A stretch of DNA of 64,000 nt from Flavobacterium sp. (GCF_040379285.1 NZ_JBEILJ010000007.1:1134-65133); one strand, 5' to 3'; counted from the first letter of the stretch, positions 8,351 through 62,498 are shown. Numbers and translations are program-made. Notes: a model not told the origin generated them from the letters alone.

Positions 8351-8382
8351 CTGAGCTGCTGAGTTTCTGAGTAACTGAGCTG
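8351..8382 (+). repeat. Tandem array of 4 x 8-mer CTGAGnnn (left arm of four-helix module 1)
   Basis: CTGAGCTG CTGAGTTT CTGAGTAA CTGAGCTG. Confidence 0.85.
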
Positions 8383-8471
8383 TTTTCCCGCCAATATAGC
8401 TTAACCGATCACAAATGGTTACATTCGGAAAGTTCACCTTAAGTTGTCATATCTTGGCAAAAATATGAGCC

Positions 8472-8825
8472 ATGAACACGTATCGAAATTTAATTGTTTG
8501 GCAAAAAGCCATGAATTTAGTGACAACAACTTATGAGATTACCCTAGAATTTCCCAAAACGGAGCAGTATTGCTTAACCGATCAAATGCGAAGGTCGGCA
8601 CTATCAATTCCGTGTAACATTGCTGAAGGTAAGGCTCGAAATAGTAATAAAGATTTTATTCGTTTTTTACGAATTGCCCTAGGTTCGCTTTTCGAATTTC
8701 AAACCCAACTCGAAATTGCAAAAAATATTGAATATATCAATCAAGAACAGTTCCAACGACTTTGGAATTTCAGTACAGAAATTGAAGTAATATTGGTATC
8801 GTTCATCAAAAAAATAAATGTGTAA
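8472..8825 (+). CDS. Four helix bundle protein (23S rRNA IVP / Avd-like family)
   Basis: YRNLIVWQKAM, FPKTEQYCLTDQMRRSALSIPCNIAEG and GSLFEFQTQLEIA. Confidence 0.93.
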   Translation: MNTYRNLIVWQKAMNLVTTTYEITLEFPKTEQYCLTDQMRRSALSIPCNIAEGKARNSNKDFIRFLRIALGSLFEFQTQLEIAKNIEYINQEQFQRLWNFSTEIEVILVSFIKKINV

Positions 8826-8842
8826 TTAATGCTGTGTTCACC

Positions 8843-8874
8843 AGACTCAGAAGCCTAGTGGCTCAGCATCTCAG
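8843..8874 (-). repeat. Tandem array of 4 x 8-mer nnnCTCAG (right arm, inverted relative to 8351-8382)
   Basis: AGACTCAG AAGCCTAG TGGCTCAG CATCTCAG. Confidence 0.75.
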
Positions 8875-10095: not shown

Positions 10096-10130
10096 TGACT
10101 GATGACTTACGACTTACGACTGATGACTGC
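10096..10130 (+). repeat. Orphan tandem array of 5 x 7-mer (T/C)GACTnn
   Basis: TGACTGA TGACTTA CGACTTA CGACTGA TGACTGC, just before promoter TACCTTTG (10142-10149). Confidence 0.8.
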
Positions 10131-47929: not shown

Positions 47930-48403
47930 GGGTTATTGTAAATTATAAATTTTAAATGAACGGCTTGCTGAGGTGAGTCGTTTTTTTTTAAATGAAGTAT
48001 TTAAAAATAATAGGTATTTTTTTGGGGAGGGGATACTCTCATTTTTATCTCTATTTGGTTCGTGTTTTGTTCAGTAATTGTTAGGTAAATGTTGCCTAAT
48101 TACCCCTATTAACCGAAGCGCTTACAAACAAGGTCCGAACAAAACCCTAATACATTTACTAAAATTATGGCAAAAGACGTTACAACCTGTCAAAAATGAC
48201 TACTAAATTCAATGATATAAAAGTTGACTATTCAATTAAATTTATAGCTAAATTTACCGTAGTAATAGCCATTAAGAATTGATTTATTTACCTTTTACTT
48301 TGAAAAGTATTGCGTGATATACTGCCAAATAAAGCATCACACAAACCATTGAAATTTTCGATTCCTATTGATACGCGCCAACAATTTTAATTTTATATAC
48401 GCC

Positions 48404-48961
48404 ATGAAAAAATTTCAAAACAAGTACCGAATACCCTCTTCCCGATTACAAGGTTATGATTATGGGGCCAACGGAATCTATTTTATTACCATTTGTACAA
48501 AAAACAGAAAACATTTTTTTGGCCATATCACAGAGACGCACGATAGTGCGTCTCCATCACCCACAGAGACGCACAATGGTGCGTCTCTGTGTGCAACGGA
48601 AATTGGTAAAATCGCACAGAAATATTGGGCCGAAATCGCTGACCATTACCCCTTTGTTACGGTTGATGCGTTTGTGGTTATGCCCGATCACCTCCATGGA
48701 ATTTTGATATTCAACAATCCCGATAAAAAGGAATGGACACCCAATCAATTTGGTCCACAATCTAAAAATCTTGCAGCTGTAATCCGAGGATTTAAATCTT
48801 CAACAAAGCGATATGCAAATCAAAATGGTATCGAATTTGAATGGCAACCTCGATTTCATGAAAGTATCTTACGAGATGAAAAGGCACTGCTAGCCGTGAG
48901 GCGCTACATCATCAACAACCCTAAAAAATGGCTAGAGACATCCCGTAAAGACGCGCAATAG
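48404..48961 (+). mobile_element. REP-associated tyrosine (Y1/HUH) transposase, IS200-like RAYT
   Basis: YFITICT, VVMPDHLHGIL (HUH), WQPRFHESILR and YIINNPKKW (catalytic Tyr); associated REP hairpins. Confidence 0.9.
48530..48591. repeat. Two REP-like hairpins inside the transposase ORF
   Basis: ACAGAGACGCACGATAGTGCGTCTC and CACAGAGACGCAC-AATG-GTGCGTCTCTGTG (13-bp perfect stem). Confidence 0.85.
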
Positions 48962-49045
48962 CGCGTCTTGCGTGTCTTGCGTGTCTTGCGTGTCTCATGA
49001 CGCGCATATCACACACATAGAGACGCGCAATAGCGCGTCTCTGTA
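48945..49045. repeat. Two REP-like hairpins plus 4 x 9-mer GCG(C/T)GTCT(T/C) tandem at the transposase/guaB junction
   Basis: GTAAAGACGCGC-AATA-GCGCGTCTT (48945-48969) and ATAGAGACGCGC-AATA-GCGCGTCTCTGTA (49017-49045). Confidence 0.88.
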
Positions 49046-50518
49046 TTATCGGGAATAATTCGGGGCTTCTTTGGTAATGGTCACGTTGTGCGGGTGACTT
49101 TCGCCAATACCACTTGCGGTAATACGCACAAATCGCCCAGTTTCTTGCAGGGTTGGAATGTCTTTGGCACCACAATACCCCATTCCGGCGCGCAATCCGC
49201 CAATAAATTGCTGCATGCTTTCATTAAGCTCTCCCTTGTATGGCACGCGACCTACTATACCTTCGGGAACTAGTTTTTTTACATCGTCTTCCACGTCTTG
49301 GAAATAACGGTCTTTCGAACCTTCTTGCATGGCTTCAACCGAACCCATACCGCGGTAGGATTTGAATTTACGACCTTCAAATATGATTGTTTCCCCAGGA
49401 GATTCTTTGGTTCCCGCCAATAACGAGCCTAACATTACACAATCGGCTCCAGCTGCAATGGCTTTCGGAATATCTCCGGTATAACGAACACCACCGTCGG
49501 CAATCACGGGAACACCTGTGCCGCGTAAGGCTGCAGCTACTTCTAGCACAGCTGAAAACTGTGGGAATCCCACTCCTGCCACGACACGGGTGGTACAAAT
49601 AGAACCGGGTCCGATACCCACTTTTACCGCATCGGCGCCATTTTCAACTAAAAATAAGGCAGCCTCAGGCGTAGCAATATTTCCAACTACAACATCCAAT
49701 TGTGGAAACTTATTTTTAACGTCTTTTAAAATGCTGATAACCCCTTTTGAATGACCGTGGGCAGTATCAATTACAATAGCATCCACGCCTGCATTGACCA
49801 AAGCGGTTGCACGATCCAAGGCATCTCCAGTAACCCCAATTGCTGCAGCTACTCGTAACCGACCCAAGGCATCTTTATTGGCATTGGGTTTCTGAATTAA
49901 TTTGGTAATATCGCGAAAGGTAATCAATCCAATCAGCTTGTTGTGTGCATCGACAACAGGTAACTTTTCAATTTTATTTTCTTGTAAAATACTTTCCGCC
50001 TCTAGTAAGGTTGTCCCTTGTGCCGCCGTAACTAAATTATCTGACGTCATTACTTCCAAAATAGATCGGCTATTTACTTTTTCAAAACGCAAATCACGAT
50101 TGGTCACAATTCCTTTTAACAAGCCTTGTTCATCGACTACAGGAATCCCCCCAATACCAAACTCTTTCATCGCCATTTTGGCATCACCAACCGTAGCAGA
50201 AAGTGGCAACGTAACCGGATCAATAATCATCCCACTTTCGGCACGTTTTACTTTACGGACTTTAGCCGCTTGTTGTTCGATGGTCATGTTTTTATGCAAA
50301 ACACCAATCCCACCTTCCTGTGCCATTGCTATAGCCATCGCACTTTCGGTCACGGTATCCATCGCAGCGGAAACTACGGGAACATTCAGGGTAATATTTC
50401 GGGTGAATTTGGATTGAATATTGACTTCGCGAGGGAGCACTTCAGAGTATCCAGGAATGAGCAGAACATCGTCGTAAGTTAATCCCTCACCAACGATTTT
50501 GGTAGTGTGTGCCTTCAT
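49046..50518 (-). CDS. guaB: IMP dehydrogenase
   Basis: [11 protein letters not shown] pair, [11 protein letters not shown] and YRGMGS. Confidence 0.98.
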
Positions 50519-50598
50519 ATTGCAATTTAATTGTTGTTAAATTGCATGCAAATGTAGGGCTTTTAATTGAGGAAAAAATTGATTTTGTGAAATAGTTT

Positions 50599-50622
50599 GC
50601 AGTCGCAGTCACAGTCGCAGTT
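50599..50622 (+). repeat. Tandem array of 4 x 6-mer (G/A)CAGT(C/T) (left arm of four-helix module 2)
   Basis: GCAGTC GCAGTC ACAGTC GCAGTT. Confidence 0.85.
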
Positions 50623-50720
50623 AGCTTGAATTGAATTCATTTTAGCTAATCAAGAAAATGCAATCAATTAATTCATAAAAATTAATACTTTTTTTTTCAT
50701 TAACGCCAAATAGAATTAAA

Positions 50721-51092
50721 ATGGATTTTACAGAATTATTTGCTTACAAAAAAGCATACCAACTTGCCATGAAACTGTTTTTAGTTTCAAAAAAATTCCC
50801 CAAAGAAGAATCCTATGCACTTACCGATCAAATACGAAGATCTTCAAGAAGTGTGTGCGCTAATCTTGCAGAAGCATATCGAAAACGAAAGTATCCGCTT
50901 CATTTTATCAGTAAATTGACAGATTGTGACGCCGAAAATTCTGAGACATTTGTATGGATCACTTTTGCTTTTGAATGCGAATACATTTCTGAAAACCAAT
51001 ATGTAAGTTATAAAAATGAAACTCTTGAAATTGGTAAATTAATTCAGTACATGATGCAGCATCCAGAAAAATTTGGAAGTAAATTAAATTGA
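50721..51092 (+). CDS. Four helix bundle protein (23S rRNA IVP / Avd-like family)
   Basis: FTELFAYKKAY, FPKEESYALTDQIRRSSRSVCANLAEAYRKR and DAENSET. Confidence 0.93.
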   Translation: MDFTELFAYKKAYQLAMKLFLVSKKFPKEESYALTDQIRRSSRSVCANLAEAYRKRKYPLHFISKLTDCDAENSETFVWITFAFECEYISENQYVSYKNETLEIGKLIQYMMQHPEKFGSKLN

Positions 51093-51119
51093 TAAAATAA
51101 ATACGTGTTTCTATACTGC

Positions 51120-51269
51120 GACAGAGACTGCGACTGCGACTGAGACTGCGACTGAGACTGCGACTGAGACTGCGACTGTGACTGCGACTGTGACTGCGAC
51201 TGTGACTGAGACTGTGACTGAGACTGCGACTGTGACTGAGACTGAGACTGTGACTGCGACTGTGACTGT
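51120..51269 (-). repeat. Tandem array of 25 x 6-mer GACTG(C/A/T) (right arm, inverted relative to 50599-50622)
   Basis: 150-bp perfectly phased hexamer run; only the sixth base varies, apart from the first unit GACAGA. Confidence 0.97.
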
Positions 51270-51278
51270 AAACTAATC

Positions 51279-52142
51279 CTAATGAAACTCCCCAAACACG
51301 CGTGATGCGACATTATAGGCGCTTTCAAAACTCATCGGACGCAATCCGGTGTGGGCTTTGACAGCAGTGAAATAGGAAAGCATTTTCTCCGTAGGCATAT
51401 TACCTGTAAGGTCGTCTTTGGCCATGGGGCATCCGCCAAAACCTTGAATGGCGCCATCAAAACGACGGCAACCTGCTTTGTAAGCCGCATCTACTTTTTC
51501 ATACCACTTGTCGGGTGTAGTATGCAAATGCGCTCCAAACTCGACATTGGGATATTTTGGAATGAGATTACTGAACAAATACGCAATTACTTCGGGGGTC
51601 GAACTCCCAATGGTATCCGACAAAGACAAAATTGTGACGCCCATTTGCGCCAAGCGCTCCGTCCACTCCCCTACAATCTCTACATTCCAGGGGTCGCCAT
51701 ACGGATTGCCGAAGCCCATCGATAAATAAGCTACTACTTCTTTTTGGGAAGCCTGCGCAATTTCCAGGATTTCTTGCAACGTGACTAAACTTTCTGCAAT
51801 CGTTTTGTGGGTATTGCGCATTTGAAAATTTTCTGAAATCGAAAAAGGAAATCCGAGGTACTGAATTTCTTGATGCTCCGCTGCATTCAGTGCGCCTTGT
51901 GTATTGGCGATTATGGCGAGGAGTTTACTGCGTGTCTGACTTAAATCCAATCGGGCCAAAACCTCAGCCGTATCTTGCATTTGCGGAATGGCTTTAGGAG
52001 AGACAAAACTTCCGAAGTCTAGGGTATCAAAGCCTACACGAAGTAGCGCTTGAAGGTAATTGACTTTGACCTCTGTGGGAATAAACGTTTTGATGCCTTG
52101 CATCGCGTCTCGTGGACATTCGATAAGTTTTACTGTTTCCAT
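51279..52142 (-). CDS. Hydroxymethylglutaryl-CoA lyase family protein
   Basis: ECPRDAMQG, FGSFVSPKAIPQM, GAHLH and GGCPMA. Confidence 0.93.
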   Translation of the reverse strand: METVKLIECPRDAMQGIKTFIPTEVKVNYLQALLRVGFDTLDFGSFVSPKAIPQMQDTAEVLARLDLSQTRSKLLAIIANTQGALNAAEHQEIQYLGFPFSISENFQMRNTHKTIAESLVTLQEILEIAQASQKEVVAYLSMGFGNPYGDPWNVEIVGEWTERLAQMGVTILSLSDTIGSSTPEVIAYLFSNLIPKYPNVEFGAHLHTTPDKWYEKVDAAYKAGCRRFDGAIQGFGGCPMAKDDLTGNMPTEKMLSYFTAVKAHTGLRPMSFESAYNVASRVFGEFH

Positions 52143-62209: not shown

Positions 62210-62239
62210 CCCCCTAACCCCAAAAGGGGGAAAGAGATG

Positions 62240-62287
62240 CTGAGACGCTAAGACGCTGAGCTGCTGAGCCGCTGAGCTCCTGAGCAA
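62240..62287 (+). repeat. Orphan array of 6 x 8-mer CT(G/A)AGnnn
   Basis: CTGAGACG CTAAGACG CTGAGCTG CTGAGCCG CTGAGCTC CTGAGCAA. Confidence 0.88.
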
Positions 62288-62458: not shown

Positions 62459-62498
62459 TTGAGCCGCTGAGCTCCTGAGACGCTGAGCTCCTGAGCAA
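62459..62498 (+). repeat. Orphan array of 5 x 8-mer (C/T)TGAGnnn
   Basis: TTGAGCCG CTGAGCTC CTGAGACG CTGAGCTC CTGAGCAA; shares CTGAGCTCCTGAGCAATCGT with the 62240 array. Confidence 0.88.

Follow-up and report, generated by a model that had tools for sequence, protein, structure and literature searches.

A four-helix-bundle protein gene between inverted hexamer arrays in Flavobacterium: a cassette whose repeat core follows the protein clade

Analysis of a 64,000-nt stretch of the genome of Flavobacterium sp. (NZ_JBEILJ010000007.1:1134-65133; hereafter the window, with positions counted from its first letter) showed the presence, at 50599..51269, of a 671-bp cassette in which a gene for a four-helix-bundle protein is bracketed by two arrays of 6-nt tandem repeats in opposite orientations. 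Comparison with homologous loci of the genus and of other orders showed that the gene and its arms are inherited and relocated as one unit, and that the motif core and the repeat period are specific to each protein clade. Taken at the level of sequence, this strongly suggests recognition between protein and repeat. We lean, with modest confidence, towards a compact cassette consisting of a four-helix gene of the S23p family and two inverted arrays, the encoded oligomer of which would recognise its own motif.

All parts of the cassette are described on the plus strand. The left, gene-upstream arm (50599..50621) comprises 3.8 units GCAGTC/ACAGTC with the core CAGTC, found by Tandem Repeats Finder (TRF) with period 6. 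It is followed by an AT-rich leader of 99 nt up to the start codon (50622..50720), by the gene encoding the protein of 123 aa (50721..51092), and by a short 3' spacer leading from the stop codon to the right array (51093..51114). The right, gene-downstream arm (51115..51269) is an expanded array of GACTGH units, delimited by TRF and repeat comparison; TRF gives period 12 with 12.8 copies or period 18 with 8.6 copies, equal to 25.7 hexamers GACTGN, in which N is C, A or T and never G. The inverted arrays around the gene had been pointed out in an earlier note on this DNA, and TRF confirmed them. The note's exact inverted match of 21 bp between 50600-50620 and 51170-51190 was correct and slightly understated, as a repeat search showed 100% complementarity over 22 nt of 50600-50621 to both 51169-51190 and 51181-51202, and complementarity of at least 86% between the left arm and the right array in 15 registers. 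A perfect inverted match of 22 nt inside 1.1 kb is not a chance occurrence. In folding predictions the cassette is closed by a terminal stem on either strand (z -2.1 and -3.4), so that an open reading frame (ORF) of the S23p family lies within a predicted stem of terminal inverted repeats.

The product was assigned by profile search to PF05635 (23S_rRNA_IVP; 2.5e-28, 98.8 bits against a cut-off of 33.8, residues 5-109) and TIGR02436 (1.1e-26, 93.1 bits against a cut-off of 24), and it matches the sequence of PDB 2RLD (3e-10). The cassette is intergenic and contains no mobility gene. The genome (2.6 Mb, 101 contigs, 99% complete; labelled G000) is a short-read draft, in which the exact count of 25 units may be off and array lengths are possibly underestimates. 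Across the whole genome, 15 of 202 contig ends fall within 150 bp of an array of period 6-8, against approximately 2.8 expected, and the arrays therefore break short-read assembly.

With one genome taken per species, 80 homologs of the 123-aa protein were collected, 75 of them at loci with full flanks. The closest homologs belong to four metagenome-assembled genomes (MAGs) of Flavobacterium (92-98% identity), and the other 76, with 58-68% identity, were found in at least five named orders: Flavobacteriales, Marinilabiliales, Bacteroidales, Chitinophagales and Saprospirales. Cores were counted as CAGT upstream and ACTG downstream, at most 150 nt from the gene. Six or more such gene-oriented cores are present at 77% of the 75 clade loci, versus 2.5% of 158 loci of other clades; the mean number of cores was 8.3, versus 0.6 in a control with reversed orientation (Mann-Whitney p = 8e-31), and the CAGT signal was found in 20 of 24 site clusters. 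The core occurs in the form of CAGTCN hexamers, CAGTGNT or CAGTNGG heptamers, or with period 9. Since synonymous sites are saturated at the distances within the clade, the core is conserved well past what neutral evolution would leave; selection that goes with the protein clade maintains it, and recent spread does not account for it. One sub-branch of the clade (approximately 64% identity; loci L275, L278, L286 and L294 in Bacteroidota MAGs) has heptamer arms with a GCAAT or GGCAAT core and not CAGT, possibly a core switch inside the clade.

The genus sample comprised 173 non-redundant loci from 61 genomes. A locus was taken as armed if the alignment of its upstream flank with the reverse-complemented downstream flank scored above the 99th percentile of mismatched-flank controls; 92 of 173 loci (53%) are armed, with 1% expected, and 91 of the 92 are tandem-periodic. 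Periods of 7 (47 loci), 8 (29), 6 (5) and 9 (4) were found among the armed loci, and hexamer arms are essentially confined to the clade of the protein under study. Armed loci at different sites, that is, without a shared neighbouring gene, were then compared in pairs, counting those with at least three gene-oriented arm 7-mers in common. Arm words are shared by 3% of different-site pairs with protein identity below 50%, by 10% at 50-60%, by 38% at 60-75% and by 93% at 75% or more, versus 1-4% throughout in the antisense control. Pairs at the same site follow the same curve, and below 50% identity they have no arm words in common. The association of arm and protein persisted with one representative per site (36 sites, permutation p<=2e-4), and the repeat period changes 13 times on the protein tree, versus a mean of 33 and a minimum of 25 in 1000 label shuffles. 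Arm words thus follow protein identity and not genomic site, and the period follows the protein tree. The DNA homology of different-site copies stops at the outer edges of the arrays. The covariation of repeat unit and period with protein clade, which the earlier note had proposed, was accordingly borne out independently of site by word sharing, permutation, tree and core.

The same data bear on a reading that we regard as very improbable, namely that the arrays are general host regulatory or structural repeats similar to TAACTGA and GGGAATC, acting through binding of S1/Csp-type proteins or through G-quadruplexes, and that four-helix genes favour array-rich spacers. Approximately 243 arrays of period 6-8 are present in the genome, 79% of them intergenic, versus approximately 13% non-coding DNA, and two published studies describe similar solo arrays that lie between aligned ORFs and favour four units, in Xanthomonas, Nostoc, Beggiatoaceae and some Flavobacteriia (PMC4692102, PMC4679880), both of which are in line with such a reading. 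It does not account for arms that follow the protein clade and not the site, for a core orientation fixed relative to the gene, or for the excess of armed genes over expectation, and the units are not G-rich.

An arm comprises about four units regardless of the length of the unit: 3.75, 4.0, 4.2 and 4.85 units for periods 6, 7, 8 and 9, respectively, while the arm length scales from 22.5 to 41.5 nt over these periods. Concordance of the variable unit positions between the two arms was rejected as evidence, as complementarity makes it true by construction.

Solo arrays were compared with the arms of resident cassettes. Among 226 solo arrays of the genome, 54% match the arms of eight resident cassettes, versus 31+-8% for foreign sets, each consisting of eight random armed cassettes from other genomes (p~0.002). 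Perfect (GACTGN)>=4 arrays are present only in G000, G001 and G016 among 41 related genomes; all three carry a hexamer-armed member of the clade, and in G001 and G016 the arrays lie away from the cassette. Similarly, (GTTGTCG)3 arrays were found only in G000, G019 and G017, and the protein clade with matching GTTGTCG arms only in G000 and G019 of the same 41 genomes. Solo arrays of a given unit are thus nearly confined to genomes that have the protein clade matching it.

The cassette is located between an HMG-CoA-lyase-like (HMGL-like) gene and guaB. This adjacency is kept in eight relatives: the spacer is empty (86-95 nt) in three of them, and it contains a solo array in one, inverted arrays without a gene in three and another repeat in one; no remnants of a four-helix gene were found in the gene-less inverted arrays at this site. 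The spacer around the 671-bp unit amounts to 80 + 9 = 89 nt and, because relatives have empty spacers, the unit is an insertion into a spacer of approximately 89 nt. The presence/absence polymorphism that the earlier note had called for was therefore found. The protein is under strong purifying selection: the ratio of nonsynonymous to synonymous differences (pN/pS) is 0.05-0.10 in comparison with same-site orthologs of the antisense lineage, and dN/dS is 0.13-0.17 for this gene in comparison with the wider clade and 0.06-0.17 across the clade. In close relatives at the same site the leader is 76-91% identical, versus 89-98% for the coding sequence.

Occupied and empty sites, together with gene and arms that move as a unit and homology that ends at the array edges, would also be expected of a selfish mobile cassette, in which the arms are terminal repeats for a trans-acting recombinase or host factor, the arrays a by-product of slippage and the protein cargo. 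The hypervariable array length (4 versus 25 units in close relatives) and the breaking of assembly by the arrays agree with it as well. We nevertheless consider such a cassette quite unlikely: no transposase, integrase or reverse transcriptase (RT) is present in or near the cassettes, and each genome would need a separate recogniser for each type of arm, up to 14. Most cassettes are old vertical residents, with site clusters reaching 24 genomes and 273 of 289 same-genome pairs below 50% identity, and the supposed cargo always belongs to this one family and is strongly conserved by selection.

Three features are unusual in this copy, namely the hexamer units, the orientation of the gene antisense to both neighbours, and the arm of 25 units. 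Among 170 loci of the genus sample, the cassette is co-directional with both neighbours in 160, where it fills the gap from the stop codon to the next start codon (medians of 2 and 6 nt); the copy at 50599..51269 does not have this arrangement, and it alone is antisense to both neighbours. In two MAG relatives with 93-95% protein identity and a proportion of synonymous differences (pS) of approximately 0.43 (L219 and L220), the cassette occupies the same site in the same orientation, and the antisense orientation is therefore old. Both in-situ inversion via the arms and insertion in inverted orientation were considered as its origin; the arms look alike either way. Because the gene is antisense to both neighbours and yet kept functional, its own promoter probably lies in the 99-nt leader, as judged from the sequence. 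No exact TAnnTTTG box, which we take to be the Bacteroidota -7 promoter consensus, is present in the leader, and a sigma-70 promoter scan is not meaningful for Bacteroidota. TAnnTTTG was found in 6 of 92 leaders, in which a search for conserved motifs detected A-richness near the start codon as the sole feature.

The asymmetry of 4 versus 25 units, presented in the earlier note as part of the architecture, turned out to be incidental. L219 and L220 carry approximately four units on each side at the same site, and the 25-unit arm is thus a recent, lineage-specific expansion of an arm of approximately four units; among the 160 arms of the genus sample it ranks second in size. The contig of L218 (98% identity) ends within the array. 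The hexamer array is also read through by a minus-strand ORF of 94 aa (51044-51328) encoding (QS)n; this ORF is an artefact, the length of the repeat being divisible by three, and might be annotated in error by a gene caller.

According to the proposed explanation, the protein would form a pentamer-like oligomer, similar to Avd and to 2RLD with its five chains, and would bind its own motif over approximately four successive units, either on the transcript or on single-stranded DNA. The inverted arrays could pair in any register and/or be bridged by the protein, forming a stem-loop as in the intervening sequence (IVS) of 23S rRNA. This stem-loop may insulate the cassette or lead to its processing by RNase III, the gene of which is present in the genome, and thereby limit harm to flanking genes. 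The copy at 50599..51269, facing against its neighbours, would use a promoter of its own in the leader.

Several observations weigh against recognition of the arms by the encoded protein. Co-inheritance of gene and arms without any recognition explains the covariation in part, conservation of the core could be due to recognition by another factor co-evolving with the cassette, and the constant number of units could result from slippage dynamics. Tests of co-occurrence rest on few genomes (3 of 41 each), and in G017 (74% complete) a GTTGTCG array is present with no matching clade member seen. No mobility enzyme of the cassette was identified, and no target duplication could be read by comparison with the genomes with empty sites, which are too diverged to align. 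The order of units in one arm corresponds to that in the other no better than that of permuted units (54 loci, mean z 0.24), and G.U-compatible mismatches are not in excess on the sense strand (GT 58 versus AC 80). The last two results do not support a precisely selected RNA stem, and the arms are best regarded as one motif array present twice, in opposite orientations, with many pairing registers and no fine-tuned stem.

The same two results bear on an alternative that we judge unlikely, in which the element is purely RNA-based and IVS-like: the arms would form only a double-stranded RNA stem, RNase III would excise the cassette, and the protein would have no sequence-specific relation to the arms. 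The family and the layout are those of the IVS of Coxiella and Leptospira, including heptamers in the stem and proven cleavage by RNase III (PMC4990558). The co-directional, gap-filling position of 160 of 170 cassettes, the rarity of TAnnTTTG in the leaders, the terminal stem predicted on both strands and the presence of RNase III point the same way. However, the need for a stem alone would not keep a core of 4-5 nt in each clade across orders and sites, nor would it give a constant number of units across periods, and the unmatched unit order and lack of G.U bias count against it too. The arms of module 1, another cassette of the window, have cores in common but pair poorly (alignment score 12, below the threshold), and in the copy at 50599..51269 the gene is maintained by selection despite its antisense orientation.

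If the preferred reading, recognition of the motif by the encoded oligomer, is extended to the whole family, each PF05635 clade would be a sequence-specific binder of its own core of 4-5 nt, which is offered approximately four times at a fixed period, and the dispersed arrays of Bacteroidota would be the targets. We put this forward tentatively, as a possible but doubtful generalisation. If it is true, a Flavobacterium genome of 2.6 Mb runs approximately 14 orthogonal protein-repeat systems; each gene is nested in its own sites, for autoregulation or self-insulation, and solo arrays by host genes form a regulon. By extension, the heptamer repeats of cyanobacteria, Xanthomonas and Beggiatoaceae would also be targets of such proteins, and the ORF-bearing IVS of rRNA would be a special case of the same system. 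Two old puzzles would then be joined. The S23p/IVS proteins are a very common family with solved structures, for which we know of no function. Short tandem repeats between genes, common in several phyla, have to our knowledge no established origin or role. The predicted determinants of specificity are the CAGT core, approximately four units and a period of 6-7. Orthogonal sequence-specific binders of this kind would provide a natural toolkit of small programmable nucleic-acid binders; if the proteins are not binders, there is still a transposase-less cassette conserved with its arms across a phylum.

Fourteen TIGR02436 genes were found in the genome, all with protein-coding flanks. Inspection of the flanks showed inverted arrays of short tandem repeats around approximately 12-13 of the 14 paralogs, the units being in most cases different, for example CTGAGNNN, GTTGTCG, GTTTCAG, ATTATGA, AAGTCGT and CAATGG; four paralogs pass the strict alignment threshold of the genus sample and eight a looser one. 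Module 1, reported in the earlier note, does exist: this cassette (8351..8874, plus strand) contains a TIGR02436 gene (8496-8816) between inverted CTGAGNNN / NNNCTCAG octamer arrays. The same site is occupied in 24 sampled genomes, always with period 8, a CWRAG core and three free positions. The gene-less arrays that the note had listed were also found by TRF, all on the plus strand, with corrections to their nature. Those near 62240 and 62459 (62234-62285 and 62460-62496) are direct and not inverted copies of the CTGAGNNN octamer of the module 1 arms, and that at 10096..10129 consists of heptamers (GACTGAT/GACTTAC) from a different unit family, to which the arms of the resident cassette C5:53722 also belong.

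Other cassettes and arrays of the genome show various rearrangements. A truncated four-helix gene (L013, C3:76940-77149), covering only profile positions 3-71, lies between CAATGG/CCATTG hexamer arrays of great length (over 350 bp on the upstream side) and represents a further expanded cassette, possibly a decaying one. In the GTTGTCG-armed cassette L002 (C33:18467-18720), a downstream segment of approximately 100 bp and its CGACAAC array are tandemly duplicated, resulting in one left and two right arms. Spacers between genes often contain concatenated arrays of two or three different unit families, as at C2:79020-79201, C4:46589-46720, C13:13683-13736 and, in the window, 10096-10129, and these arrays are adjoined by small GC-rich hairpins (GCCTGCC...GGCAGGC, CCCCC...GGGGG).

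Both neighbours of the cassette are encoded on the minus strand. Gene guaB (49046..50518), encoding IMP dehydrogenase (Pfam IMPDH, 1e-162), starts 80 nt from the left arm, and the stop codon of the HMG-CoA-lyase-like gene (51279..52142; Pfam HMGL-like, 3.8e-20) is 9 nt from the right array. A putative -7 promoter box of guaB, TACATTTG (50549..50556, minus strand), proposed from the consensus mentioned above, lies between the cassette and guaB in a spacer segment conserved among relatives. The region upstream of guaB (50519-50560), as well as loci L177-L206, contains a genus-conserved palindrome TGCAATTT...AAATTGCRTGCAAATATA, which includes a -7 box of the Bacteroidota type on the strand of guaB and is possibly a regulatory hairpin as well. 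An element of approximately 100 bp, CCCTAGCCCAGATGGAAATGGAAAGC...AAAAAGCGACCAACGGAAGCTC, recurs in the spacer upstream of guaB in several species (L179, L188, L194, L200, L201 and L203), and looks like either a miniature inverted-repeat transposable element (MITE) or a structured RNA.

A gene resembling those of REP-associated tyrosine transposases (RAYT; REP, repetitive extragenic palindrome) is present at 48368-48961, 1.6 kb from the cassette, with a score below the curated cut-off. Its ORF contains two in-frame copies of a 22-nt palindrome similar to GAGACGCACGATAGTGCGTCTC (48533-48588), two more 22-nt palindromes are located at and after its stop codon (48948-49041), and an array of 3.9 units GCGTGTCTT lies between the palindromes (48961-48995). 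A second RAYT-like gene was found on contig C16. The RAYT was ruled out as mobiliser of the cassette, as the REP hairpins associated with it are unrelated to the cassette arms.

Among known systems, REP/RAYT (REPIN) elements and MITEs are similar to the cassette in being small palindromic intergenic elements dispersed through the genome. They differ in that the REP hairpins GAGACGCRCRATRGYGCGTCTC bear no relation to the GCAGTC arms, that the arms of the cassettes consist of tandem arrays and vary from cassette to cassette, and that the gene is not a transposase. In comparison with MITEs and insertion sequences, no transposase is present in the cassette, and the arms are arrays and not classical terminal inverted repeats.

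Avd of diversity-generating retroelements (DGRs) is homologous in its four-helix-bundle fold; this basic pentamer binds nucleic acid, and the RNA on which it acts has structured segments at its flanks. The possibility that the protein is an Avd-type accessory factor of a DGR, with the arrays as template or target features, is hardly credible. In its favour, the protein weakly matches bAvd (PF22296, 2.5e-12) and the model of DGR Avd, NF033474 (3.4e-10), but the latter match scores 40.2 against a cut-off of 80, no RVT_1 reverse transcriptase is encoded anywhere in the 99%-complete genome, and no pair of template and variable repeats was found. The absence of RT effectively refutes a DGR or retrohoming.

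Intergenic heptamer arrays have been described as GGGAATC in Xanthomonas and Nostoc, with 70-75 inverted pairs in Xanthomonas (Rehm et al. 2015, PMC4692102), and as TAACTGA in Beggiatoaceae, Cyanobacteria and some Bacteroidetes (Flavobacteriia) (MacGregor 2015, PMC4679880). These arrays are similar to those of the cassettes in units of 6-9 nt, a preference for approximately four units, co-directional ORFs, a position by stop and start codons, and variable copy number. G-quadruplexes or generic RNA-binding proteins are proposed for them there (PMC4692102, PMC4679880), whereas the arrays of the cassette bracket a gene whose clade predicts the unit. No link of heptamer arrays to a four-helix-bundle gene was found in term searches of the two papers, in which neither 'S23' nor 'intervening sequence' occurs, and no 'four-helix' in the one also searched for it. 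Literature searches revealed no account of genes of the four-helix-bundle family bracketed by repeat arrays elsewhere than in rRNA.

The closest published analogue is the ORF-bearing IVS of 23S rRNA; the earlier note, which knew of no described mechanism, is to be corrected in that S23p-encoding IVSs with tandem heptamers in their terminal stems are known as an analogue (PMC4990558). At the 5' end of the IVS of Coxiella burnetii there are two or three tandem heptamers GACAGAT, the number of which varies by strain (Warrier et al. 2016, PMC4990558). In Coxiella and Leptospira, the IVS has a stem of inverted repeats, and its cleavage and excision by RNase III are proven; the Coxiella ORF is decaying and apparently not translated, and a selfish or mobile nature has been proposed for the IVS (PMC4990558). 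In both the IVS and the cassette, a PF05635 protein is encoded within the loop of a long stem of terminal inverted repeats, and no mobility enzyme is encoded. Unlike the IVS, the cassette is located between the HMGL-like gene and guaB, antisense to both, and not in a helix of 23S rRNA (9, 25 or 45). Excision by RNase III, proven for the IVS, is hypothetical for the cassette; an RNase III gene is present in the genome. In the cassette, the arms are whole tandem arrays, here of hexamers, with a clade-specific core, and the gene is under strong purifying selection, in contrast to the decaying ORF of Coxiella.

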